Below the pieces are notes generated by a model. That model had not been told where the DNA came from. It saw only the letters and a list, made by a program, of their open reading frames with translations, and did not search any database. A program made the translations under genes and the position numbers. From a virus, in IMG/VR virus record IMGVR_UViG_3300037258_000282, positions 1 to 64,000 of that record: a stretch of 64,000 nt of DNA, one strand, 5' to 3'. Of the stretch, positions 4,076-55,088 are shown piece by piece. Numbering within the stretch: position 1 is the first letter of the stretch; every line of letters starts with the position of its first letter.

Positions 4076-4331
4076 GTGAGATCTCTAGGTTGATCTCTAG
4101 GTTGATCTCTAGGTTGAGGACTTGGTCATAGCTCTAGACTATTGGTCAGAGACTTGGTCAGAGCTCTAGGTCATAGCTCTAGGTTGATCTCTTGGTCAGA
4201 GCTCTAGCTCTAGCTCTAGGTCAGAGACTTGGTCAGAGACTTGGTCATAGCTCTAGGTCATAGCTCTAGGTTGATCTCTTGGTCAGAGCTCTAGCTCTAG
4301 CTCTAGGTCAGAGACTTGGTCATAGCTCTAG
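4076..4331. repeat. mosaic tandem array of 12-bp units (CTCTAGGTTGAT / TTGGTCAGAGAC / CTCTAGGTCATAG)
   Basis: roughly 20 permuted units read directly; no spacers. Confidence 0.9.
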
Positions 4332-8209: not shown

Positions 8210-8283
8210 GTGCGATTCGTCCAATGGCAGGGCCCGCGGCCGATTACCGCGAGACAGGGGTTCGATTCCTCTATCGCATACCA
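8210..8283 (+). tRNA. tRNA with GAT anticodon (Ile-like), non-canonical loop CC-GAT-TA
   Basis: full cloverleaf, A-CCA; C33/U37 atypical. Confidence 0.7.
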
Positions 8284-8286
8284 AGT

Positions 8287-8316
8287 AGAAAGGCCCAGGT
8301 CGGACCTGGGCCTTCT
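8287..8316. terminator. GC-rich hairpin (terminator/processing)
   Basis: AGGCCCAGGT-CGG-ACCTGGGCCT inverted repeat. Confidence 0.6.
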
Positions 8317-8427
8317 GGTATCTAGAATATCCCGCAGTAGTGAAGAAGTAGGACTAGACACGTTCCGAGCACGATCGTCTTACCGAGCAGATCGCAGAAC
8401 TTCTCTATCGAAGTGTTGGGATCTGAC

Positions 8428-8673
8428 TCAGGAAGCATATCGCTCAAATCTCGCGAGTTTCTCGGAATACTCGATCTCGTCTAGTATCTCACTCCGAGAC
8501 TCATACGCGCCCTCTTCCCATGCTCTGAAAAACGCGGAGTCTAGTATGTACGGGTTAATGTCTTCCATGAAGGAGATGTCCGTACTTCTAGTTATCTTGT
8601 AGTTCTTCCTAAAACCGTTGAAGCCCTGCATGAAGCACACTTGGTACTCTCTAGGGCTTATCTTGACCGGCAT
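8428..8673 (-). CDS. hypothetical protein
   Basis: GGGAG RBS and upstream TTGACA promoter on the - strand. Confidence 0.6.
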   Translation of the reverse strand: MPVKISPREYQVCFMQGFNGFRKNYKITRSTDISFMEDINPYILDSAFFRAWEEGAYESRSEILDEIEYSEKLARFERYAS

Positions 8674-8967
8674 AGAACTTCTCCCAACTTATTTGGAATA
8701 GCATATCACCGATAGACGCATATGTCAACTGGTCCTTATCCCCCAGAGAGGGTCGTAGAGGACCGCGTATCTCCGATGGTATGTTTACACCTCTCTGATC
8801 GCCTCCTCGGCTCTCCGATCCTCTCTAGGGATCATCATCTCTGGGAGTCAGTTGACACGGGCACTCTAATTTGTTATATATAACACCATGGAGAGGATCA
8901 CTCTTCCATACCAGAGTTGACAACACCACTCAAGTGTGTTAGTATTTAACCACAGTGGAGTTCAGTT

Positions 8968-9831
8968 ATGCCCGTAACAAACTCAAAGAAGGACGTCTCT
9001 GCCCAAAATGGGACCGCCGCGGCTCTCGCTGAGATCGCGGTCGAGATGCGAAACCAGGCGCCGGTTGGAAATGAGACCGATCAGCAGATCGCCGAGCGCC
9101 TCGAGGAGCGCTTTACCGTACTCGACATCCTCGTGGAGGCATCCATCACTGGAGACGCCCGCGCCCTGATAGTCTCCGGCCCTCCGGGAGTCGGTAAGTC
9201 TTTCACGGTCGAGCAGCACATGAGGGAATACGATCCCGCGGGAGACGTTCATACCATCATCAAGGGCTTCGTTCGAGCATCCGGCTTGTTCAAGACTCTG
9301 TACAACTATCGCCATCCCGGCAACGTCATCATCTTCGACGACGCCGACTCGGTGTTCTTCGACGATAACTCACTGAACATCATCAAGAGCGTCTGCGATA
9401 CTACGGGCACGAGGCGGGTCTCCTGGCTCTCCGAGTACGAGTTCATCGACGCCGAGGGCGAGGCCATCCCGAATACCTTCGAGTTCGAGGCTACGGTAAT
9501 ATTCATCACGAACCTCGACTTCGACTTCTTGGTCGACCGAAATCACCGGCTCGCGGAGTCGCTGAAGGCCCTGATGTCGAGAGCTCACTACCTCGATATG
9601 TCGATGAAGACTCGGCGAGACTACCTGGTCCGCATCAAGACCGTCGTCGAGGCCGGACTCCTGGGAGACTTCTCAGTTCAAGAGCGAAGTGAGATCATGG
9701 GCTTTATAGAGGCCAACTATTTGAAGATTCGAGAGCTCTCTCTTCGCATGGCCATCAAGGTTGGTCACCTCCGAAAGAGCTCTCCGAGTAACTGGAAGAG
9801 GATCGCTCTTCTAACGACCTGCAAGGCGTAA
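8968..9831 (+). CDS. AAA+ family P-loop ATPase
   Basis: Walker A GPPGVGKS, Walker B IIFDDAD, sensor IFITN. Confidence 0.85.
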   Translation: MPVTNSKKDVSAQNGTAAALAEIAVEMRNQAPVGNETDQQIAERLEERFTVLDILVEASITGDARALIVSGPPGVGKSFTVEQHMREYDPAGDVHTIIKGFVRASGLFKTLYNYRHPGNVIIFDDADSVFFDDNSLNIIKSVCDTTGTRRVSWLSEYEFIDAEGEAIPNTFEFEATVIFITNLDFDFLVDRNHRLAESLKALMSRAHYLDMSMKTRRDYLVRIKTVVEAGLLGDFSVQERSEIMGFIEANYLKIRELSLRMAIKVGHLRKSSPSNWKRIALLTTCKA

Positions 9832-9902
9832 GAGTTACTCCTCGGAGAGGAGCGGTCGCTCCTATCCATAAATATAACCTCTCTGGAGAGGACTATGGTG
9901 GT

Positions 9903-10094
9903 ATGTATAGGTACAAGGTGTTGGTAAACTATAAGGTAATCGATAGGAAGGCGTCGGACTACGGGTGCGTGCTCGAGTCTGCGCGGAAGTTCACGTGCTT
10001 TTCTGACGCCGTCGCGTGGATACGTGACTTTAGAGCGATGTCCAATACGTATCAGATGGTGGGAAAGCCAACTGTTGAAGCTATCTCTCAGTGA
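9903..10094 (+). CDS. hypothetical protein
   Basis: ORF with RBS. Confidence 0.55.
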   Translation: MYRYKVLVNYKVIDRKASDYGCVLESARKFTCFSDAVAWIRDFRAMSNTYQMVGKPTVEAISQ

Positions 10095-10101
10095 AGGATG
10101 A

Positions 10102-10503
10102 ATGAAGATGGATTTAAATTTTAATGAGTTGAGTCAAGTCTATTGGAAGGTCGTGGGTCGCGCAGGTGACAGGCTGATCTTGACTCGAGGAACGGATAAA
10201 TTGGTAGTAAATATAGTCTCCTACGACAACGCCGGCGCGCCGGGCGAGAAGACGTCCGCTCAACCTAAGTGTGAGGAGTGGTACTTCACGGACTATCCCC
10301 TCGACGACAGCAGTGAGTGCGGCTTTTCAACTTCCGCGTTCACCGTCGAAGATGCCATCGACAACTTGAATAAGACTCTCAGGATCAAGAAGGATGACGT
10401 TGACACACGGGATGATATGGAATATATCTATAAGATGGTTGGTAAGATGAAGAAAGCCGTCTCGTTCTCACTCGTTACGCCAACTTCGGATGGAGAGATC
10501 TAA
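10102..10503 (+). CDS. hypothetical protein
   Basis: ORF in operon context. Confidence 0.55.
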   Translation: MKMDLNFNELSQVYWKVVGRAGDRLILTRGTDKLVVNIVSYDNAGAPGEKTSAQPKCEEWYFTDYPLDDSSECGFSTSAFTVEDAIDNLNKTLRIKKDDVDTRDDMEYIYKMVGKMKKAVSFSLVTPTSDGEI

Positions 10504-10504
10504 C

Positions 10505-10828
10505 ATGAACTTACCTAGGGGAAGTCATTGGGTCGTAGATGAGAGCCACCCCGACGGGACTCTTCTACTGAAAAGTTCTGAGCCGAACGTCTGCTACTCC
10601 ATCGTCAAGATCGTCAGCAGCGATGAAAGGAGTGACTGGATCTTCGTGAGCGATAATGAAAAGGTTGAGCTAACATGCCTCGACTGCACTCTTCAAGAGG
10701 CGCTAGCGTCGCTTCAGAATGAGGCTGAATATGTCAACGACATCAGCGGAGTATACAAGTTCCACTCAAAAGTCAATATGAGGATCGTGTACGAGATCGA
10801 GGATGTTGACGTCTCCGAGAAGGCGTGA
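10505..10828 (+). CDS. hypothetical protein
   Basis: GGAG RBS before ATG 10505. Confidence 0.55.
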   Translation: MNLPRGSHWVVDESHPDGTLLLKSSEPNVCYSIVKIVSSDERSDWIFVSDNEKVELTCLDCTLQEALASLQNEAEYVNDISGVYKFHSKVNMRIVYEIEDVDVSEKA

Positions 10829-10861
10829 TAGAATCTTCTCAGGAATTATCGGAGGTTCGAG

Positions 10862-11032
10862 ATGACGGCGTTCGTAGAAGTTCAAATTCACGGCTCCTGG
10901 GTCGTGGCTTCGTCGACCATCAACAAGGCTCAGTTCGTGCTGACTGAGATGGAGAGAGTAAAGCGGTCGTATCCGACTTCCAGAGTTCGAGCCGTCGACG
11001 AAAATGGAAGAATCGTCGACATCCTCGGCTGA
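10862..11032 (+). CDS. small hypothetical protein (56 aa, MTAFVEVQIH...RVRAVDENGRIVDILG)
   Basis: not in ORF track; GGAGG RBS and promoter TTGACG-N17-TAGAAT at 10806-10834. Confidence 0.7.
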   Translation: MTAFVEVQIHGSWVVASSTINKAQFVLTEMERVKRSYPTSRVRAVDENGRIVDILG

Positions 11033-11057
11033 GGTTCTGGAGAGTCAGTCATAAATA

Positions 11058-11268
11058 GATTGACTCTTCGGAGTTCGGGCAGGCACCCCGAATCGACAAA
11101 ACTGTCGGCACGCTTGGTGGACTAGTCGCTGTACTCACAGACACTGGTCGCGAATCAAGTATGTTAGAGACGTCAACCCTGTGAACACGGGAGCAGGGCC
11201 TGCGTTCTCGCCCTCTGGACCTGGATCCGGAGTCTCGGTGGCTTCCCTGGAAGCGCGACCGAGCTTTT
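11058..11268 (+). ncRNA. candidate structured non-coding RNA
   Basis: follows CATAAATA late-type promoter; series of hairpins including a UUCG loop; ends in a hairpin plus T-run. Confidence 0.5.
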
Positions 11269-11273
11269 TAATT

Positions 11274-11349
11274 GGGTCCATAGCACAATGGGTAGTGCGC
11301 CGTCCTTTTAAGTCGAGAGACCTCAGTTCGAACCTGGGTGGACCCACCA
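11274..11349 (+). tRNA. tRNA-Lys(TTT)
   Basis: cloverleaf, CCA; mismatched anticodon stem. Confidence 0.85.
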
Positions 11350-11353
11350 GTAC

Positions 11354-11446
11354 GGGAAGGGCAAGTAAGGTCAAGCTGGTGCTGATGGGCCACTGTAAAT
11401 GGTCTCCCTCTGCGGCAAGGTGTTCGATTCATCCCCCTTCCCACCA
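11354..11446 (+). tRNA. tRNA-Tyr(GTA), extra ~8 nt before the D-arm
   Basis: GGCCA-CTGTAAA-TGGTC arm, long variable arm, CCA. Confidence 0.75.
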
Positions 11447-11504
11447 ATCTCTGTTGACAAAAGCTCTAGATGGTGATATCGTAGAGCGATAGTATGGAGT
11501 TACG

Positions 11505-11762
11505 ATGATACTGCGCGCTATATCGATCGCTCTGGCCCTCGCGGTTCAGCACTCTGATATCTACCGCGGGACCGCAGAGGCCTGCAACGTCTCTGGATAC
11601 TACGAGGAGCTCAGCCTCGAGTATCCCTCGGAGTCGTACTGCGAGAGATCAATGATGATGGACCTACCGAGCTGGATCTCTCTGCTCGACTCCTCGGGCC
11701 ACGGTAACTTCCAGCTCCAGGGAGGATGGCGGTGCCGAAAGATCTCGGACTCTGACGCGTGA
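11505..11762 (+). CDS. hypothetical protein with N-terminal hydrophobic segment
   Basis: GGAG RBS; promoter at ~11454. Confidence 0.55.
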   Translation: MILRAISIALALAVQHSDIYRGTAEACNVSGYYEELSLEYPSESYCERSMMMDLPSWISLLDSSGHGNFQLQGGWRCRKISDSDA

Positions 11763-12265
11763 GTGAGATCTGGGTCGTATCAGACACACACTTCGGTCAC
11801 TCAAACATCATCAAGTACTGCTTCAGACCGTTCTCCTCCGCGGAGGAGATGGATGAGGAGATGATAGAGAGGTGGAATAAAGTCGTGACTCCAGAAGATC
11901 ACGTCTATCACCTCGGTGACGTCTACTTCTCGAAAGACTCAAACTTCCAGTATCGTCTCAACGGAAAGAAGAGACTCATACTTGGAAATCACGATAATGG
12001 AAAAGACGATACGCTTCTCAAGATGTTTCAAAAGATCATGGTCTGGAGGATGTTTCCAGACTTAGGACTTCTCTTGACTCACGTGCCGTGCCATCCAGAC
12101 GGACTGTCATTCAAGGACCTAACTAACGTTCACGGCCACATCCACGAGAAGATCGTGACTCGATACACTGAATATGAAAATAGACCAGATCCTAGGTATA
12201 AGAACGTCTCGGTGGAGCAGATCGACTACACTCCAGTGAATATCGAAGCGCTCAGGACCAGATAA
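11759..12265 (+). CDS. calcineurin-like metallophosphoesterase
   Basis: DTHFGH, HLGDV, GNHD, HGHIH motifs. Confidence 0.9.
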   Translation: MSEIWVVSDTHFGHSNIIKYCFRPFSSAEEMDEEMIERWNKVVTPEDHVYHLGDVYFSKDSNFQYRLNGKKRLILGNHDNGKDDTLLKMFQKIMVWRMFPDLGLLLTHVPCHPDGLSFKDLTNVHGHIHEKIVTRYTEYENRPDPRYKNVSVEQIDYTPVNIEALRTR

Positions 12266-12275
12266 ATAGATCTAT

Positions 12276-12351
12276 GGGTGCGTAGCTCAATTGGTAGAGC
12301 GGCTGACTCTTAATCAGCAGGCAGTCGGTTCGATCCCGACCTCACCCTCCA
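12276..12351 (+). tRNA. tRNA-Lys(CTT)
   Basis: canonical cloverleaf, CCA. Confidence 0.9.
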
Positions 12352-12369
12352 TATATACGACGGCTGAGC

Positions 12370-12442
12370 TCGGGTGTAGCTCAACTGGTAGAGCAACCGA
12401 CTGTTAATCGGTAGGCTGTAGATTCGAATTCTACCTCCCGAG
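12370..12442 (+). tRNA. tRNA-Asn(GTT)-like, no CCA, acceptor stem extended by 11 bp
   Basis: cloverleaf; flanks GACGGCTGAGC / GCTCAGCCGTC are perfectly complementary. Confidence 0.8.
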
Positions 12443-12469
12443 CTCAGCCGTCATATAAGTATATCTTTC

Positions 12470-12547
12470 GGTGTAGTGCGTCGGAAATGGATACGGCACA
12501 GTCTGCAAAACTGATATATGTGGGTTCAAGTCCCATCTACACCTCCA
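12470..12547 (+). tRNA. tRNA-Cys(GCA)
   Basis: cloverleaf, U73-CCA. Confidence 0.85.
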
Positions 12548-12551
12548 ATAT

Positions 12552-12628
12552 CTCCGCGTAGCTCAACTGGAGGAGCACTCGGCTACGAACCGAGAGGAAT
12601 GCGGGTTCGAGTCCTGCCGCGGAGGCCA
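12552..12628 (+). tRNA. tRNA-Arg(ACG)
   Basis: cloverleaf, CCA. Confidence 0.9.
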
Positions 12629-12649
12629 CTTCAACTAGAGAGGTAAAAT

Positions 12650-13009
12650 ATGCCTAAGAAGAGTGATAAAGACGAGACCGTATCGGATGCCGTGGAAGAT
12701 ACCACTGTAGATACCGTGGAGGATACCACCACGCACATTTTTCCAATCGACCACACTCCAGAGCTGATCGACTTTAGTAGAGTTAGAGCATACGAGCTGC
12801 GTGATAGGCTTAACCTGCCTCACGACTACTCGTTCATAAGCGACATCTCTCCCACTACAGAAGTCGATCTAATGCTCGCGACGATCGGGCAGTCCAACTT
12901 TGTCTCTGTATCAAGACATAGACTCTCGGCGCAGATCACGCTTCTGATGGGATTCATCTCCCCGGAGGGAAGGTCTAACCTGGCGAGATACGTATCAGAC
13001 AGATCGTAA
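12650..13009 (+). CDS. hypothetical protein
   Basis: GAGG RBS; internal VEDTT duplication. Confidence 0.6.
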   Translation: MPKKSDKDETVSDAVEDTTVDTVEDTTTHIFPIDHTPELIDFSRVRAYELRDRLNLPHDYSFISDISPTTEVDLMLATIGQSNFVSVSRHRLSAQITLLMGFISPEGRSNLARYVSDRS

Positions 13010-13010
13010 C

Positions 13011-13085
13011 GCGGGTATAGCTCAATGGTAGAGCGCCTCGGTGCCACTAAGGAAGCTCGGGTTCGATTCCCGATACCCTGCTCCA
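13011..13085 (+). tRNA. tRNA-Gly(GCC), atypical
   Basis: cloverleaf with bulged acceptor and weak anticodon stem, U73-CCA. Confidence 0.75.
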
Positions 13086-13129
13086 CATCATAGAGAGGTT
13101 AGCGCACTTATCGGTTGCACTGAGTAAGA

Positions 13130-13204
13130 CCCGTCCTTCGTTCAATGGCAGGACGCCAGTTTGTGGAGCTGGATACCAGAGTTCGATTCTCTGAGACGGG
13201 ACCA
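13130..13204 (+). tRNA. tRNA-His(GTG), no G-1, A73
   Basis: cloverleaf, A-CCA; preceding base is A. Confidence 0.85.
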
Positions 13205-13205
13205 G

Positions 13206-13281
13206 GCCGCTCGGGAGGTGGAGGTCATCTCATCGCTCTCATAAGGCGAAGAACGGAGTTCGACTCTCCGGGGCGGCACCA
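13206..13281 (+). tRNA. tRNA-CAT (Met or Ile2)
   Basis: TCGCT-CTCATAA-GGCGA arm, CCA. Confidence 0.8.
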
Positions 13282-13282
13282 G

Positions 13283-13290
13283 TATAAATA
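13283..13290 (+). promoter_or_regulatory. T4-type late promoter TATAAATA
   Basis: exact gp55 consensus; same or NATAAATA variants at 8125, 11050, 12261, 14730 and 16032 precede tRNA blocks. Confidence 0.65.
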
Positions 13291-13447
13291 TTGTAAAAAT
13301 ACTGGAGTCTCACATTGCTGTCTTTATCGTGGACTAAACTCTACGATCACATGGCCAGAAGGATGGCTAATAAGCACGAGGTAAAGCATCACATGGGGCA
13401 TTCAACGTTCACTATACATAGATCAGACTTAAAGTAATCTTAGTTTT

Positions 13448-13523
13448 GAGTGACGTGCTGGTATGGTTATAGCGCTGACCTGAAGAGTCAGACAATCAGG
13501 TTCGATTCCTGAGTCACTCACCA
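13448..13523 (+). tRNA. tRNA-Phe(GAA)
   Basis: cloverleaf, CCA. Confidence 0.85.
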
Positions 13524-13525
13524 GA

Positions 13526-13614
13526 GGACAGTCTACCGGAGAGGTCTCCGGACCCGTTTGCTAAACGGTGGGCTCTCGGAAGGGAGTGCGTTTCGAGTAC
13601 GCGGCTGTCCTCCA
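13526..13614 (+). tRNA. tRNA-Ser(GCT)
   Basis: long variable arm, CCA. Confidence 0.8.
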
Positions 13615-13620
13615 TGAGAT

Positions 13621-13691
13621 ATGGGTCGAGTGTTATGGTACACGCAGGTCTCCAAAACCTTGAATAGGGGGTTCGATTCCTCCGGCCCGTG
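13621..13691 (+). tRNA. tRNA-Trp(CCA), CCA end not encoded
   Basis: cloverleaf with G73. Confidence 0.8.
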
Positions 13692-13735
13692 CATTGAGTT
13701 GATATAGTGATAAGAAAGTGATATATAGAGAGAAT

Positions 13736-13826
13736 GGAGTGCGTATCTGGCCGGTGATGCCAGCATCGTCTTGAAAACGATAGGAGGCCTAGAGCCCAGG
13801 GGTTAAATTCCGCCACCACTCCGCCA
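13736..13826 (+). tRNA. tRNA-Ser(TGA)
   Basis: ATCGT-CTTGAAA-ACGAT arm, long variable arm, G-CCA; degenerate T-arm. Confidence 0.75.
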
Positions 13827-13834
13827 TTTAATAT

Positions 13835-13912
13835 CCGGCGTTTGTTTAATTGCACTAATACACCTGTTTTTCAAGCAGAGAGATATGGGTTGGAGTCCCA
13901 TACGCCGGACCA
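13835..13912 (+). tRNA. tRNA-Glu(TTC), degenerate
   Basis: acceptor and T stems intact, T-loop TTGGAGT, CCA. Confidence 0.65.
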
Positions 13913-13950
13913 AGACTACCAAGACTACCAAGACTACCAAGACTACCAAG
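13909..13950. repeat. 9-bp tandem repeat (ACCAAGACT)x4.7
   Basis: read directly; begins with the tRNA ACCA end. Confidence 0.95.
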
Positions 13951-14026
13951 CGACGTTCTTCTAACGGCCTAGGAAACCAGGTTCTCAGCTTGGGGAATAT
14001 GGGTTCGAGTCCCATACGTCGCGCCA
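13950..14026 (+). tRNA. tRNA-Glu(CTC)
   Basis: cloverleaf, G-CCA. Confidence 0.85.
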
Positions 14027-14041
14027 AAAAGTGAACCGAAG

Positions 14042-14695
14042 ATGGATATATTCACGATGAGCCCTAAAGTACTCACCCTGATAGGTGACGTTCACGGAAA
14101 ATTTGGTCGATACGAGACCATAATAAAGAAACTGACCAATACCGTTCAGGTCGGAGACATGGGCGTTGGATTCACGTCTTCGATAACTGGAGACCATTAT
14201 ACCAACCCACCGCACCGCGGTATGGTTTCTGGCAACCATCGCTTCATACGTGGAAATCACGACAATCCCCGGGTATGCTCTCGTCAGTCTCAGTGGATAC
14301 CAGATGGATACGTAGAGACAAGTCCATCCGGAGTCAAGATAATGTATGTCGGAGGGGCCTTCTCGATAGATCGAATGTGTAGGACTGAGGGGTTTGACTG
14401 GTGGGCCGACGAGGAGTGCTCGTACGTCGAGTTCATGAAGATCATCTCGGCCTACGAAAACTTCAAGCCGGACATCATGATCACGCACGACGCTCCAGAC
14501 TTAGCGCGATCTCAGATGTTTCTATCCGGAAGAATAGAAAGCACTAGAACTTCCGCCGCTCTTCAAAACATGTTTGACATTCATCAGCCATGCGAACATT
14601 TCTTTGGTCACTGGCACATAAACAAGACTGAGAAGATCGCGGGCACTAAATTTACCTGCCTGGGAGAGCTGTCCACACTTGAGCTCTCCATATAG
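14042..14695 (+). CDS. calcineurin-like metallophosphoesterase
   Basis: GDVHG, GDMG, GNHD, THDAP, FGHWH motifs. Confidence 0.9.
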   Translation: MDIFTMSPKVLTLIGDVHGKFGRYETIIKKLTNTVQVGDMGVGFTSSITGDHYTNPPHRGMVSGNHRFIRGNHDNPRVCSRQSQWIPDGYVETSPSGVKIMYVGGAFSIDRMCRTEGFDWWADEECSYVEFMKIISAYENFKPDIMITHDAPDLARSQMFLSGRIESTRTSAALQNMFDIHQPCEHFFGHWHINKTEKIAGTKFTCLGELSTLELSI

Positions 14696-14747
14696 TGGTT
14701 GACAGATGCCAACTCACGTAATATAGTGAGATAAATAGAAAGTTTCG

Positions 14748-14822
14748 GCCCGTCGCGCAGACTGGGATTGCAGGTGTTTTACACGCATCTTAAGTAGTGT
14801 TCGATTCACTAGACGGGTACCA
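14748..14822 (+). tRNA. tRNA-Val(TAC)
   Basis: cloverleaf, CCA. Confidence 0.85.
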
Positions 14823-14850
14823 AGTTTCCGCTAGCCGTGGCGGTTAGTAT

Positions 14851-14923
14851 TGCGCGGTGGACAAGTAGTTAAGTCGTTTGTCTCATAATCAAAAGATCGG
14901 GAGTGCAATTCTCTCCCGCGCAA
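14851..14923 (+). tRNA. tRNA-Met(CAT)
   Basis: cloverleaf; ends ACAA, no CCA. Confidence 0.75.
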
Positions 14924-14930
14924 CAAATAG

Positions 14931-15009
14931 CTGGGCGTAGGGGAGTCTGTCCGTCCCTGCCTCCCTTGGAAGGAGGAGACCGCTGGTTAAAATCCAGCCG
15001 CCCAGACCA
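14931..15009 (+). tRNA. tRNA-Pro(TGG)
   Basis: C1-G72, A73-CCA. Confidence 0.85.
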
Positions 15010-15013
15010 ATAC

Positions 15014-15089
15014 GTTCTCGTAGTTCAACTGGATAGATCGCCGGCCTCCTAAGCTGGACGTGTGGGTTCGAGTCCCGCCGAGAACACCA
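15014..15089 (+). tRNA. tRNA-Arg(CCT)
   Basis: cloverleaf, CCA. Confidence 0.9.
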
Positions 15090-15096
15090 CTGCATA

Positions 15097-15184
15097 GGGT
15101 ACCGGGACTGCATGGGGTGGTCGCCGTGGTCGCCTCACTTGCAATGAGGAGTTCAGCAGGGTCCGATTCCCTGGGTATCCACCA
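15097..15184 (+). tRNA. tRNA-Ala(TGC) with 9-nt tandem duplication in the D-arm
   Basis: G3:U70, TGC loop, GTGGTCGCC x2, CCA. Confidence 0.8.
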
Positions 15185-15201
15185 GATTACTGGAGTTTGA
15201 T

Positions 15202-15648
15202 ATGAGGAATTGCTGGGTATTCGACATAGACGGAACGGTCGCCAACGGCGATCACCGAAAGTACCTGCTCAGCACTCTGAGCGGACAGAGAAAGTGGGAC
15301 GAGTGGTATAAGCTGGCCTACCTCGATCTGCCGCACCGAGACATAATAGACTTTACTCACGTGGCAAAGATGATATCAATGCCGGTCATGATGTGTACCG
15401 GTCGGCAAGATGAATGCCGCGAGACTACGGTCAGATGGCTATACGATCATTACGTCATATACGACCGCCTGTACATGCGCACTACTGGAGATCATCGAGA
15501 CGACGCCGTCATCAAGCTAGAGTTGGTCAACCAGATGAAGAGTGATGGATTCAACCCCGTGCTCGCTTTTGAAGACCGAGATAGAGTCGTCAAGATGTGG
15601 AGGGACCTCGGAGTGCGGTGCCTTCAGGTCAACTACGGAGACTTCTAG
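15202..15648 (+). CDS. HAD-family phosphatase (PseT/PNK 3'-phosphatase-like domain)
   Basis: FDIDGT, CTGR, LYMR, FEDR motifs. Confidence 0.85.
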   Translation: MRNCWVFDIDGTVANGDHRKYLLSTLSGQRKWDEWYKLAYLDLPHRDIIDFTHVAKMISMPVMMCTGRQDECRETTVRWLYDHYVIYDRLYMRTTGDHRDDAVIKLELVNQMKSDGFNPVLAFEDRDRVVKMWRDLGVRCLQVNYGDF

Positions 15649-15843
15649 ATGAAACCCATAACTTGCTATACCGCGTGTCACCTCATTCAAGAGTCGCTCG
15701 ATCCAAATCCACTTATGATGACGAGATACATTCCAAGTAGATATGCCGACGTAGGTAGAGTCATAACGCTGGCGGATGACGCCGAAAACATCTGGACTGT
15801 TTCCGAAGTATTCGATACCGTATACTGTCACGAGGTGGATTGA
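15649..15843 (+). CDS. hypothetical protein
   Basis: operonic ORF. Confidence 0.5.
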   Translation: MKPITCYTACHLIQESLDPNPLMMTRYIPSRYADVGRVITLADDAENIWTVSEVFDTVYCHEVD

Positions 15844-16040
15844 AGATGGACGCATTCAGCGTTTATGTTCTCTGCACTCTCAAGCGAGAGGGTGACGTGT
15901 CCGGACACATCACTCACAGATACCTCAGTAGGTGGGACGCGGTTTACGGAAAGAAGATCATCTTAGAGTCTGATAACTCGGCTTCCTACGTCGTCATAGA
16001 CGTACACGAGCAGACCCATCAGCACAACGTTTATAAATAA
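15840..16040 (+). CDS. hypothetical protein (weak paralog of the upstream ORF)
   Basis: shared TRY[IL]..R..A..G+.I.L pattern. Confidence 0.5.
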   Translation: MKMDAFSVYVLCTLKREGDVSGHITHRYLSRWDAVYGKKIILESDNSASYVVIDVHEQTHQHNVYK

Positions 16041-16045
16041 AGTAT

Positions 16046-16121
16046 TCCTCGATCCTCTAATGGTAGGAGTCCAAGCGTTGAACTTGGGGAATGCGGGTTC
16101 GAGTCCTTGCTCGAGGAGCCA
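16046..16121 (+). tRNA. tRNA-Gln(TTG), G33
   Basis: U1-A72, loop CG-TTG-AA, CCA. Confidence 0.8.
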
Positions 16122-16125
16122 TATA

Positions 16126-16202
16126 GCGCTGGTAGCCCAACTGGTAGAGGTGCCTGTCTTAGAAACAGGAGGTTGTGAGTTCGAATCTCACGCGGCGCAC
16201 CA
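16126..16202 (+). tRNA. tRNA-Leu(TAG), short variable arm
   Basis: CCTGT-CTTAGAA-ACAGG, A-CCA. Confidence 0.85.
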
Positions 16203-16276
16203 GTCCTTATAGTACAGTGGCAGTACAGATCCTTTGTACGTATCAGACTCCAGTTCGATTCTGGGTGAGGGCACCA
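16203..16276 (+). tRNA. tRNA-Thr(TGT)
   Basis: cloverleaf, CCA. Confidence 0.8.
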
Positions 16277-16277
16277 A

Positions 16278-16351
16278 GTCGCGTTAGCTAAATGGCAGAG
16301 CAACCACCTCGTAAGTGGTAGACCGGAGTTCGATTCTCCGCCGCGGCACCA
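16278..16351 (+). tRNA. tRNA-Thr(CGT)
   Basis: cloverleaf, CCA. Confidence 0.85.
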
Positions 16352-31643: not shown

Positions 31644-31717
31644 TGGAGCGGGCTACCGGAATCGAACCGGTTTAGTTAGCTTGGAAGGCTAATGATCAAC
31701 CAATAACCCAAACCCGC
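31644..31717 (-). tRNA. tRNA-Gly(TCC)
   Basis: cloverleaf, U73-CCA. Confidence 0.9.
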
Positions 31718-31730
31718 GTAGTTATATTTA

Positions 31731-31820
31731 TCACTTCTTGTTCGATCTGCGCTTCTTGCGCTTAGACGAACCTATCTTCCTGCGCCCCTTTCGTGGACGA
31801 TTCTTATGAGCATGAGGCAT
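31731..31820 (-). CDS. 29-aa Arg/Lys-rich peptide
   Basis: MPHAHKNRPRKGRRKIGSSKRKKRRSNKK. Confidence 0.6.
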   Translation of the reverse strand: MPHAHKNRPRKGRRKIGSSKRKKRRSNKK

Positions 31821-31841
31821 CGTTAAACTCTTTCAATAATG

Positions 31842-31918
31842 TGGTGCCCGGAGTGGGACTCGAACCCACACTGTGCGGGGTTTAAATCCGCTGACACTAC
31901 CAATTGGCCTATCCGGGC
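31842..31918 (-). tRNA. tRNA-Leu(TAA), short variable arm
   Basis: cloverleaf, A-CCA. Confidence 0.8.
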
Positions 31919-52145: not shown

Positions 52146-52502
52146 TCAAGCTCCGGCGATTGGTTTAAAAGATTCAGGAAGAATGACATTTGGCGGACTT
52201 CCCCTGAAGAAATGGGCAATATCTGTCGGGGTATATCCCGCGAGGCCGCACCCGATCGCTGTAACCTCAAATGTCATCTCCGTATGCTCTCTAGCGAACT
52301 CAATGAAATCTCTAACATATCTCTCTATCCAATCAAGTGGAAGAGTCCTGAGGTTCGCGTCCTTAGTAGGTATGCCATACGATCTACCCATCAGTCCAGT
52401 AGACCGTCCGTACACCGCGCCCTTGTACTTTTTAGCGTAGAGCGCGGCGCCCTTTCCGTGCCTTCCAGCCAGATTGGAGCCGAAGACGAAGATACTCTCC
52501 AT
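52146..52502 (-). CDS. conserved phage protein (IFVFGSNLAGRHG family)
   Basis: IFVFGSN..G.HG.GAA, SY.IPT, IGCGLAG. Confidence 0.75.
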   Translation of the reverse strand: MESIFVFGSNLAGRHGKGAALYAKKYKGAVYGRSTGLMGRSYGIPTKDANLRTLPLDWIERYVRDFIEFAREHTEMTFEVTAIGCGLAGYTPTDIAHFFRGSPPNVILPESFKPIAGA

Positions 52503-53611
52503 CAGAAGAACCTCTCAAGAGAACTCTTCTTCTCGAGAGTCCAACCGATCACGTCGACTATAGACTTAAGTGGCTCAAGAAACGCCTTATCAAACTGAAG
52601 GTTTCGATCTATGAAGTCCTCAAGTCCAAATTCAACCGGCATCCTCTCAGCTATCGATATCACGTTCTCACCTATTGGGTTTGGAAGTCTAAGGTACGCG
52701 AACTTCACCTTATCGCCATCCGATATGGGCTGAATAGTCTTGAGCCCATGCTCCCGACATAGGTGATTGAAGAGTAGAGCTCCCCTGACGGCAATTGGAG
52801 TCTTATCTCCGTATATCCTCTTATTGTCTGAGTACTTATCCATTCCGTTCACCGACCGGGGAAACGCTATGTCTTCAAACTTCAGTGCGTTGAACTCATC
52901 TCTGAACTTGTCGATAAACGCATATAGCTCTTCCTGACTTCCATGTAATATTATTCCTATGGCCTTCTTAATATTGTCTCGACAGACGTGTGGAGTTGAA
53001 GAGCGCACGGCCTCTATTCCAGACATCTTGATCTCAGGAGGATCGCACTTAACTCCCTCGATGTCCAGGGCTGAGAGAATATACATCTTTTTAGCTTTCC
53101 AGATAGATCTTCCAGCTATGGTTTCTCTCTTCATGTGCATCTTCTGCTGATATGCGCCCATTCTATGTTGAAGTTCGGCGTATATCTTTTCGAGCTTCGG
53201 GGCGATCTTCTCGCTTACGAACCTATCTAGGGCCGCGGTTATCTCGTACTTGTCTTTATCTCGACCTATCAACTCCACGATAGAGTCTAATTCAAGATAG
53301 ATGGAATCAGTATCGGATGCCACGACATAGTCTATTCCAGAAGTCTTGAGTAGAACGTTGATATACTGGTTGAGCTTCTTTTCTGTCCACCTGATCGTAA
53401 GCTGACCTGAAGAAGTCACTGCCTCAGCGTGGTTGAAGTCAAACCAGCGAAAATATTGATTCGCGAGCTAGAGCGCGCCGTAGAACGAGTTGAGAGATGT
53501 CTTCATAGATAACTGAAGATTGTGATACTTCGAGATCTCATTTTTCAACTGTTCACGACGCGCTAAAAGCTCCTCCTTTCTCAAGGCGCTAACCTTTTGC
53601 ACTTCCGTCAT
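52502..53611 (-). CDS. family B DNA polymerase C-terminal subunit (gp43B) with internal in-frame TAG at 53468-53470
   Basis: GGAGG RBS + ATG 53611; motif B KTSLNSFYGAL, stop, LANQYFRWF; motif C DTDS; KKMY; C-terminal SLERFF. Confidence 0.9.
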
Positions 53612-53636
53612 CTATCACCTCCCTCTTAAGTATAGA

Positions 53637-55088
53637 TCAAAGTTTAACTAACTCAGCGTTTACCACCGCCAGCTCCTTCTTGGCGTTGAGCATTAGCTTC
53701 TTATACTTTACTCGTCCATCGTATAGCTTCTGCATGATCTCTGGAAGAAAACCAGACTTGTCCTTCCTATACGCGCAACCATTCGCGGCAAACGAGAAGC
53801 TCTTCCTATCATACTCTGATAGTGGATCTTCGCCCGTAAGCAGTTCATCTATCTTCGGAAAATTATGATACCTAGTTGAGAACATCTCCGGTGAGATATT
53901 GTACTCCATAATTAAATGTGGGTAGAGTGAGTCCAAATCGAGAGACACGACCCACCTAGACTCACCTATCTTCGGCTCCTTGACGTATCCTCCCATGAGG
54001 GAGTCAAACATCGTAGACTTCTTCACCGGAGGAATCACTATACCCTGGTTCATCAAGTGAGAGTGTATGATCATATCAGACGGGCGAAGGGTGGTGAGAG
54101 TATCTATATAGTTGACTTTAGCCAAGTACGCGTAGGCTACGACCTGCTCCAAAAACTTAAGCTTCTCCTCCAGCTTCTCGACTAGAATGCAGTCCCTCAC
54201 GTTGTAGTCTATATACTTCGTAAAGTCTGCTCGGTATATATCCATGAGGTTTCCATACTCAGAGTAGTCCAACTTCTGCTCGTTGAGCTCGACCTTGGAG
54301 ATATAGTCTAGCTTATACGACTCAGAGTTTCCAAACTTAAACTTTCTATAGAGCTGATAGTAGTCCAGAACACTGACTCCAACTATCACGTAGCTGTGAT
54401 TGGTCTTATTGTGGAACGCTACCTCATTTATATCCAAGATCTTCCACGGTGAGAGTCTAAGAGTCCACGACTCACCTATAACCGCTCGTATCCTATTGAT
54501 AAGATATGGAATGTCGAAGAACTCTATGTTCCATCCAGTCACTATATCTGGGGATATAGACTCCCAGCACCTCACTACCATCTGGAGAAGCTCTATCTCA
54601 TCGTGGCACTTCACGTACTCGATCGATGGATCAGTTCCGAGATACTCCTCGCACCCAAATACCATAGACTTACCGCGAAACCTCAGAGTCACTGCCGTGA
54701 TCTCTTGGTCCGCTCGAACTATCGATGGAAATCCTGAGTCAAACTTACACTCCAAGTCTAGAGTGATAGTTCTTATCATAGAGAAGTCGTGCTCTATTAA
54801 GTCTGGAAACTTATCGTATATGTAGAGGTATTGAAAGTTATCCAGCCCGTAGATCTCAAAGTTATCGACGTCTTTGTACTTATCTACGAACGCCTTAGCG
54901 TCCTTGATGCTCGAAAAGTTCATCTTCCCAAACTTACGACCATCTAAAGATCTATACTCTCCCGTTGGAGATGGAACGAACAGGTAGGGCTCGTACTCTA
55001 CGCATTCCTTGACGCGCAGTCCCTTGTCGTATCCGCGGTAAAATATCTTGTTACCGCGCTTAAGTACAGAAGTGTAGAATTCTACCAC
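53637..55088 (-). CDS. family B DNA polymerase N-terminal subunit (gp43A: exonuclease + motif A)
   Basis: DLE, GWN..FFDIPY, YN..D, DLDSLYP; ends in the fingers helix. Confidence 0.93.
   Translation of the reverse strand: MVEFYTSVLKRGNKIFYRGYDKGLRVKECVEYEPYLFVPSPTGEYRSLDGRKFGKMNFSSIKDAKAFVDKYKDVDNFEIYGLDNFQYLYIYDKFPDLIEHDFSMIRTITLDLECKFDSGFPSIVRADQEITAVTLRFRGKSMVFGCEEYLGTDPSIEYVKCHDEIELLQMVVRCWESISPDIVTGWNIEFFDIPYLINRIRAVIGESWTLRLSPWKILDINEVAFHNKTNHSYVIVGVSVLDYYQLYRKFKFGNSESYKLDYISKVELNEQKLDYSEYGNLMDIYRADFTKYIDYNVRDCILVEKLEEKLKFLEQVVAYAYLAKVNYIDTLTTLRPSDMIIHSHLMNQGIVIPPVKKSTMFDSLMGGYVKEPKIGESRWVVSLDLDSLYPHLIMEYNISPEMFSTRYHNFPKIDELLTGEDPLSEYDRKSFSFAANGCAYRKDKSGFLPEIMQKLYDGRVKYKKLMLNAKKELAVVNAELVKL

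Follow-up and report, generated by a model that had tools for sequence, protein, structure and literature searches.

The window analysed here is a stretch of 64,000 nucleotides (nt), the first 64 kb of the 152,589-bp IMG/VR record IMGVR_UViG_3300037258_000282 (estimated to be 91% complete), and it belongs to an uncultured T4-like soil phage. It carries a split gene for the T4-type DNA polymerase gp43, the downstream half of which (gp43B) is interrupted by an in-frame TAG placed between two identical CTC codons. The comparison of this locus with about 65 interrupted relatives makes it quite probable that gp43B is translated by means of an obligatory hop of the ribosome from the first CUC (the take-off codon) to the second one (the landing codon), over the UAG.

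The gp43A product represents the N-terminal part of a T4-type family B DNA polymerase, that is, the exonuclease and the first palm/fingers part; it matches the Pfam families DNA_pol_B_exo1 (1.6e-24) and DNA_pol_B (1.3e-10) and bears a C-terminal extension (..AKKELAVVNAELVKL) common to other split forms. The first open frame of gp43B encodes a cassette-type N-terminal extension (VSALRKEELLARREQL) followed by the fingers helix P with motif B (K..LNSFYGAL). Beyond the TAG and the second CTC, the sequence continues as GCG AAT CAA TAT TTT CGC TGG, in a frame that is open for 321 codons after the TAG and that encodes ANQYFRWF..., the second palm part with the DTDS motif, and the thumb, with 52–60% identity to phage DNA polymerases. 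The window polymerase is 52% identical to cyanophage gp43, it harbors motif B (K...NS.YG) and DTDS, and its break lies in the fingers; according to Pfam matches, motifs, and alignment, it belongs to the split form of the T4-type family B gp43. The first start codon of the resumed frame is GTG 53419, 14 codons after AAT and 15 after GCG; the mechanical list of open reading frames (ORFs) opens the downstream piece at this codon, and the protein on record has 305 amino acids (aa).

The presence of the additional bases was checked in an independent Logan assembly of the sole public run containing the window DNA (a soil metagenome, probably the source sample). The Logan contig matches positions 53000–54000 of the window with 0 differences and 0 gaps, at a mean word depth of 42.8; since an independent contig matches exactly, the six bases did not arise during assembly, and they are those of the majority sequence. 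The first 66 relatives retrieved from IMG/VR (47–69% identical) all lack the six bases and align as YGAL--[G/A]N.YFRW; therefore, the window has exactly two extra codons. Moreover, ARAGORN detected 26 tRNA genes and one tmRNA-like (transfer-messenger RNA) sequence in the whole genome, and no tRNA with a CUA anticodon either in the window or in the whole record. TAG terminates 35 of the 190 long ORFs of the phage genome, and among the in-frame ORF pairs separated by a TAG, gp43B is the only one lying inside a conserved gene, the others being gene ends followed by gene starts, or non-coding frames. Thus, TAG is a normal stop in this phage, and its reassignment can be rejected. A 12-mer similar to the site occurs at 4199 and 4286 with one mismatch, which is no more than expected by chance. 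An earlier note on this DNA, which placed the gene start at ATG 53611, the start in the ORF track at 53419, and the TAG at codon 48, agrees in all its coordinates with the sequence and the ORF list. Its count of exactly 6 extra nt, its statement that TAG is a normal stop elsewhere, and its remark on the lack of a CUA tRNA in the window (which extends to the entire record) were equally correct, and the assembly error that it had named as a possible objection is answered, for the majority sequence, by the independent contig.

The gene calls of several relatives begin where the shortened call of the window does, and this led to the interrupted loci, whose DNA was obtained from pattern scans of IMG/VR (the first of which allowed TAA and TGA, too) and from further look-ups. 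Two of them (L075 and L076) read GGT GCT CTT TAG CTC GGA AAT (YGAL, stop, L, GN), which is the architecture of the window with a different take-off codon. The alignment of the short leader ORFs retrieved 115 protein clusters, about 95 of which are ORFs of 43–51 aa ending with ..YGAL, ..YGALG/S/A, ..YGAI, ..YGAV, or ..KKVQL, from JGI, ENA, Logan, and NCBI; one leader-ORF cluster was seen on 56 contigs. The comparison set comprised 121 classified loci, 61 uninterrupted and 60 interrupted (33 distinct local sequences, with inserts of 4–11 nt), and six more loci (L095 and L133–L137). In total, the interrupted relatives are about 65, with inserts of 1–11 nt that all fall in the same 47-codon leader. 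Inserts of 4, 5, 6, 7, 8, 9, 10, or 11 nt (the 60 loci, L095, and L133–L136) sit at the same two positions, the one of L136 being 10 nt long; the inserts of L074 and L137 measure 1 nt and lie nine codons earlier. Directly 3' of the take-off codon, 62 out of 65 interrupted relatives carry TAG; L136 has a TGA there, whereas L074 and L137 have a TAA. Two further candidates, the gene calls P0022 and P0062 that begin with MANQYFRW, were discarded as artefacts of N-gaps in the scaffolds.

In most interrupted loci, the take-off codon and the codon preceding the resume point specify one and the same amino acid (Leu/Leu, Ile/Ile, Val/Val, or Gly/Gly), often with a wobble difference, and 13 further distinct matched forms were found in the relatives besides the one of the window (Table 1). 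The coding gap is 3 nt in the window and 2–8 nt in the relatives, and the frame in which the gene continues differs among lineages (0, +1, or +2). Identical or synonymous codons flanking one in-frame stop, the arrangement that defines a stop-hop, occur as CTC TAG CTC in the window and as CTT TAG CT[C/A/T], ATT TAG ATC, and GGT TAG GGA in relatives. The wobble differences between take-off and landing codons argue against a mere fresh duplication, and, given the resumption in all three frames, neither read-through nor one type of frameshift can be the mechanism shared by all.

Close to the resume point, the resumed frame of most classes is devoid of ATG, GTG, and TTG, and the next start is met 10–45 codons into conserved sequence (the exceptions are L080 and L108, with a start one codon into the resumed frame). 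In the 15 codons after the resume point (N.YFRW....AEA.), the ratio of nonsynonymous to synonymous differences (pN/pS) amounts to 0.28 when all pairs of 38 different interrupted sequences are considered and to 0.18 within the Leu class; the synonymous sites are saturated. Purifying selection despite the lack of a start codon implies that the post-gap stretch is translated in the resumed frame, as one chain with the upstream part, and its conservation excludes decay. These data agree with the earlier note, which had described both flanks as free of decay (borne out here downstream of the gap) and had proposed, as a test, to see whether the series matched codon, stop, matched codon is conserved in related phages, ideally with co-varying codons; it is so in most of the approximately 65 related loci.

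From these comparisons we infer the hop itself, its efficiency, and the protective role discussed below. A ribosome would start at ATG 53611, read 47 codons, and stall while the P site is occupied by CUC with its peptidyl-tRNA-Leu and the A site by UAG; the tRNA would then unpair, the mRNA would slide by 6 nt, and the same tRNA would re-pair at the next CUC. Decoding would resume at GCG, so that nine bases would yield one leucine and the product would read ...NSFYGALANQYFRWF..., with the canonical motif B junction and TSLNSFYGALANQYFR as the predicted junction peptide; ribosomes terminating instead would release a 47-aa peptide. A tRNA-Leu of the phage with anticodon UAG, a decoder of CUN codons, is a possible candidate for the hopping tRNA, and a host tRNA-Leu(GAG) would serve as well. 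The stop-hop had been put forward in the earlier note; the part of that interpretation concerning a CUC-to-CUC movement giving ...YGALANQYFRWF is strongly supported by the co-varying matched codons in three frames, whereas the gating role attached to it is not.

Three other explanations of the interruption were considered. If the TAG simply terminated translation, the rest of the polymerase would be made separately (e.g., from GTG 53419), giving a three-piece enzyme, or would not be made at all, the contig then representing a defective or complemented variant. Gene callers do give a 305-aa ORF from GTG 53419, the polymerase is already split once, so that a further split is conceivable, and the GTG contained in GGTGCG might allow a restart in the +1 frame in the 4-nt class. 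However, a start at GTG 53419 drops LANQYFRWFDFNHAEA, which is under purifying selection in the same 38 sequences (pN/pS 0.28), and the lack of a nearby start codon in most classes led us to reject separate initiation of the downstream part as a general explanation. In turn, the repeated occurrence of a conserved architecture, in about 95 protein clusters and in dozens of samples, is not what a defective allele would give, and the window allele is the assembled majority at ~43x. Neither version predicts that the flanking codons match, and we regard this explanation as improbable.

The reading of UAG by a near-cognate or host suppressor tRNA would produce YGAL-X-L-ANQYF, with two extra residues at the fingers/palm junction. 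The insert of the window, like the other 6- and 9-nt forms, is in frame, so that read-through would give a full-length protein, and UAG followed by C is generally known as a weak termination context in E. coli. We nevertheless judge it distinctly improbable, in that the 152.6-kb genome has no suppressor tRNA and uses TAG as a normal stop, two extra residues at this site occur in none of the 61 uninterrupted relatives, and the match of the codons flanking the stop is not predicted. For the family as a whole, read-through fails in view of the frame change caused by inserts of 4, 5, 7, 8, 10, and 11 nt and of the two consecutive stops of L089. The removal or skipping of the extra bases at another level, such as RNA processing or editing leaving a continuous translated mRNA, finds some room in the fact that no RNA run containing this DNA was found, but it is very improbable, since it needs neither a stop right after the last sense codon nor a landing codon for the same tRNA, folding revealed no conserved RNA structure marking the site, and we know of no bacterial or phage mechanism that excises 1–11 nt.

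Several observations weigh against the hop over the UAG. For each member of the family, the argument is drawn entirely from the comparison of DNA sequences. The synthetic stop-hops of Weiss et al. (1987) in E. coli were reportedly inefficient, in the order of 1%. The contigs of the probable source sample show the majority sequence only, so that a minority allele lacking the 6 nt is possible. No relative of the window with more than 60% identity was found in the phage collection or among 5.8 billion proteins; thus, the CTC/CTC pair cannot be traced through close kin. Queries with the leader sequence found no cultured phage with a hop, only the two split forms without it, S-CREM2 and S-N03. Folding of 51 nt around the site gave no stimulatory RNA structure in the window or in the Leu class (z ~0); the site of the window has a minimum free energy of -8.6 kcal/mol (z = 0.1), and the Leu class shares no hairpin. 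Lastly, two classes lack a fully matched landing codon, the match being confined to positions 2–3 (Table 1), for which reason the simple matched-codon rule is incomplete; their sequences would fit either an imperfect landing or a +1 shift adding Ser.

No stem-loop like that of gene 60 was found in the window, where the z value is about 0 and the CGCG..CGCG stem around the site measures only 3–4 bp. In the 4-nt class, a 6-bp stem (CAGYGC..GCGCUG) ends just before the take-off GGU. A member of this class (L077:2500-2520) reads GGT TAG TAA TGA, with all three stops in the old frame, and its +1 frame reads ..VSNEYFRWF.

The distribution of the interruption among the polymerases follows that of the split. 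In all the 58 scorable interrupted loci, the polymerase is split 40–77 codons upstream of the motif B YG, and 57 out of 58 uninterrupted loci are unsplit (the exception being L002). An ORF of 158–244 aa lies between 43A and the leader in 37 of the 47 interrupted loci with enough upstream DNA, and 11 of the 13 intervening ORFs tested match Pfam GIY-YIG or SegE_GIY-YIG, some below the curated cut-off; ten loci, including the window, are split and interrupted and have no nuclease gene. The split forms, the window among them, share additional fingers-tip sequences absent from unsplit polymerases, namely AK.EL..V.AE..K, with which 43A ends, and the leader motif SALRKEEL.A.REQL (SALRKEELLARREQL in the window), the latter motif being conserved among the hop-bearing forms.

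A quick maximum-likelihood tree of the C-terminal 300 residues scattered the interrupted forms among uninterrupted lineages, which is the pattern expected for a mobile cassette. In the tree, the window is sister to the unsplit L003 (SH-aLRT 98), which lacks the cassette C- and N-terminal extensions; the gap-proximal part of the window leader (LNSFYG) resembles L003, and its N-terminal part resembles other cassettes. A split intein was rejected: no additional segment of the size of an intein is present in 43A, and the RYHN of the leader belongs to the polymerase itself, being found also in unsplit forms.

The constant association of the hop with a split polymerase, and usually with a GIY-YIG gene, points to a selfish-element cassette comparable to MobA/gene 60 of phage T4. 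According to this model, a mobile cassette would have split the polymerase at the fingers tip, and the six extra bases would represent its 3' end; the cassette would consist of the 43A extension, the GIY-YIG homing endonuclease gene, the new 43B N-terminal leader, and the gap. By analogy with MobA/gene 60, the gap would most likely break the nuclease target in the highly conserved motif B DNA, sparing the carriers self-cutting; in the phage of the window, the nuclease gene would have been deleted, the split and the hop remaining. As the origin of the element, self-protection appears more likely than gating or titration. The statement of the earlier note that the element gates or titrates the replicase is thus unsupported, the hop being tied instead to the split polymerase and, usually, to the GIY-YIG gene. 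More broadly, we lean slightly towards the view that stop-containing gaps of 1–11 nt, read by hopping, are a self-immunity device of GIY-YIG cassettes widespread in the polymerases of T4-like phages, and that natural co-varying stop-hops (Leu/Ile/Val/Gly, gaps of 2–8 nt, three frames) would be efficient enough to supply the essential replicase without an RNA hairpin, perhaps helped by the leader peptide.

Forms with the split and no gap after motif B exist as well. The cultured cyanophages Synechococcus phage S-CREM2 (L131, OR473000.1) and S-N03 (L132, MT162466.1) are A/B-split with an ORF of 81–98 aa in between, and L002 is a metagenomic example of the same state; either the gap may have been lost from such cassettes, or the split may be of another kind. 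Furthermore, stretches of ~100 N occupy the fingers-tip region of gp43 in two ENA scaffolds (L068:3860-3990 and L069:1720-1830), which suggests that assemblers break at the fingers tip, possibly as a result of cassette polymorphism in the population.

In T4, the MobA/gene 60 element splits the topoisomerase gene, adds C- and N-terminal extensions to its halves, and imposes a 50-nt bypass after a leader of 44–46 aa; the bypass protects the carriers from nicking by MobA, some carriers have lost the nuclease and kept the bypass, and the cassette has been called unique to that gene (bioRxiv 10.1101/2022.08.31.505936). The gp43 loci resemble this system in that the split of an essential replication gene is due to a free-standing homing endonuclease gene, with new extensions on both halves; the gap follows a leader of 44–47 codons in the downstream half (codon 47 of 43B in the window), UAG comes right after the take-off codon, the landing codon matches the latter, and the loss of the nuclease gene in some carriers has left the split and the gap in place. 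The gene 60 bypass and the MobA cassette are reportedly also treated in the works of Huang et al. (1988) and Bonocora et al. (2011). In experiments with gene 60 constructs, landing was observed on codons differing from the take-off codon in the third position (bioRxiv 10.1101/2024.12.09.627546).

Unlike gene 60, the gp43 loci have a gap of 3 nt (2–8 nt in relatives) instead of 50 nt, no take-off stem-loop or significant RNA structure, and a take-off codon for Leu, Ile, Val, or Gly depending on the lineage, and their bypass is proposed from sequence comparison. Since the host gene encodes a family B polymerase and not a topoisomerase, and the nuclease ORFs are of the GIY-YIG/SegE type and not HNH as MobA, the gp43 family is, judging from these sequences, an analogue of MobA/gene 60 and not a homologue.

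The closest parallel to the proposed decoding is represented by the synthetic E. coli stop-hops (Weiss, Dunn, Atkins, Gesteland 1987; O'Connor et al. 1989), in which matched codons stand on either side of a stop and nine nt give one amino acid without a stimulatory signal. Those are low-efficiency laboratory constructs, whereas the gp43 form occurs in nature, within an essential gene, and has been both conserved and diversified among many phages. The constructs first made reportedly included CUU UAG CUA, as in the relative L082. A review of 2016 presented in-frame stop-hopping with matched flanking codons as demonstrated in synthetic constructs alone and shorter natural counterparts of gene 60 as long presumed, stating of the natural case that 'no occurrences are known' (PMC5009743), and our literature searches found no paper describing hops in gp43.

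The split of gp43 into 43A and 43B has precedents in cultured phages, and the genes annotated in S-CREM2 and S-N03 share with the window two adjacent genes, the break in the fingers, and sometimes a small ORF in between. Split gp43 was reportedly described by Petrov et al. in T4-related phages such as Aeromonas phage Aeh1. Unlike the window, the annotated cultured split forms have an uninterrupted B subunit of 366 aa, with a gap after motif B absent or undescribed.

The prfB gene, coding for release factor 2 (RF2), undergoes a programmed +1 frameshift at CUU UGA C with an upstream Shine-Dalgarno-like element. A similar geometry occurs in the two loci with the 1-nt insert (L074:2287-2500 and L137:770-988), where CTT TAA C, likewise inside the 43B leader, is preceded 3 nt upstream by AAGGTG; by slipping +1 from CUU to UUU, tRNA-Leu restores ..KKVQLNSAYG.., and there is no start codon in the +1 frame. 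Unlike prfB, the window has no such site and needs a move of 6 nt between non-overlapping codons.

Programmed bypassing so far rests almost entirely on T4 gene 60 and its homologues, plus the yeast mitochondrial 'byps'. The window and its approximately 65 related loci would supply the missing natural short hops, in an essential enzyme, and they represent a natural mutagenesis series with varied tRNAs, gap lengths, and frames and two imperfect-landing classes. They would also show that the link between endonuclease, split gene, and bypass arose more than once, with another nuclease family and in another host gene. If the self-immunity interpretation were true, T4 gene 60 would be one instance of a general nuclease-plus-bypass strategy, with a graded natural series for take-off and landing. 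In addition, phage annotation pipelines miss or miscall such polymerases because gene callers truncate them, as in the case of the 305-aa ORF of the window.

Table 1. Location of the features of the gp43 locus and of other genes of the phage genome, and sequences of the proposed take-off codon, gap, and landing codon in the window and in its relatives.
Feature	Position	Strand	Description
gp43A	53637..55088	-	483 aa; stop TGA 53639-53637; from translation, Pfam, and alignment with split and unsplit relatives
43A-43B spacer, 25 nt	53612..53636	-	contains the ribosome-binding site GGGAGGTG at 53623-53616; no nuclease ORF
gp43B first open frame, 47 codons	53471..53611	-	ATG 53611-53609; ends ...TCG TTC TAC GGC GCG CTC
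Proposed take-off codon CTC	53473-53471	-	last of the 47 sense codons
In-frame TAG (codon 48), proposed 3-nt coding gap	53468..53470	-	sequence and independent contig
Proposed landing codon CTC	53465..53467	-	same codon as at take-off; relatives likewise have matched landing codons
Resumed gp43B frame	52502..53464	-	from GCG 53464-53462; 320 codons and stop 52504-52502
Phage tRNA-Leu (anticodon UAG)	16126..16202	+	ARAGORN
Candidate tmRNA-like gene	G000:C1:135312-135627	-	outside the window; ARAGORN call, permuted
Leu form, window			take-off CTC; gap TAG; landing CTC
Leu form			take-off CTT; gap TAG; landing CTC, CTA, or CTT (CTA in L082)
Leu form			take-off CTT; gap TAGC; landing CTT
Leu form			take-off CTT; gap TAGTGA; landing CTC
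Leu form			take-off CTG; gap TAGCGAAT; landing CTG
Ile form			take-off ATT; gap TAG; landing ATC
Val form			take-off GTC; gap TGACTAA; landing GTT
Gly form, one codon later			take-off GGT; gap TA; landing GGT, GGC, or GGA; 23 loci
Gly form, one codon later			take-off GGT; gap TAG; landing GGA
Gly form, one codon later			take-off GGC; gap TAGCTA; landing GGC
Gly form, one codon later			take-off GGT; gap TAGTTA; landing GGA
Gly form, one codon later			take-off GGA; gap TAGTTT; landing GGC or GGT
Gly form, one codon later			take-off GGT; gap TAGATA; landing GGT
Imperfect class, 4-nt insert	L070:3990-4015		take-off GGT; then TAG[C/T] and AAY; would-be landing AGC/AGT; 11 loci, including L070, L071, L077, L078, L096, L102, and L124
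Imperfect class, 8-nt insert			take-off TCC; gap TAGTT; landing AC[C/T], then AAY; 6 loci, including L092, L094, L101, and L106

As for the rest of the genome, the window embeds 24 tRNA genes (8210-16351 and 31644-31918), 22 of which form one cluster and which include tRNA-Leu(UAG) and tRNA-Leu(UAA), and two further tRNA genes (Met and Gln) lie elsewhere in the genome. Long runs of same-frame ORFs with repetitive translations (GALRSLGAL.., DALVYGDALVYG..) are found in the window at 4199-4297 and 5850 and in the whole record (G000) at 147-151 kb, near both record ends; they are probably repeat-rich structural or fibre genes. The tmRNA-like sequence (Table 1) has the predicted tag peptide ANDNFACEARLAA; a phage-borne tmRNA, if real, would be of interest beside a gene in which ribosomes would be stalled on purpose at a stop.

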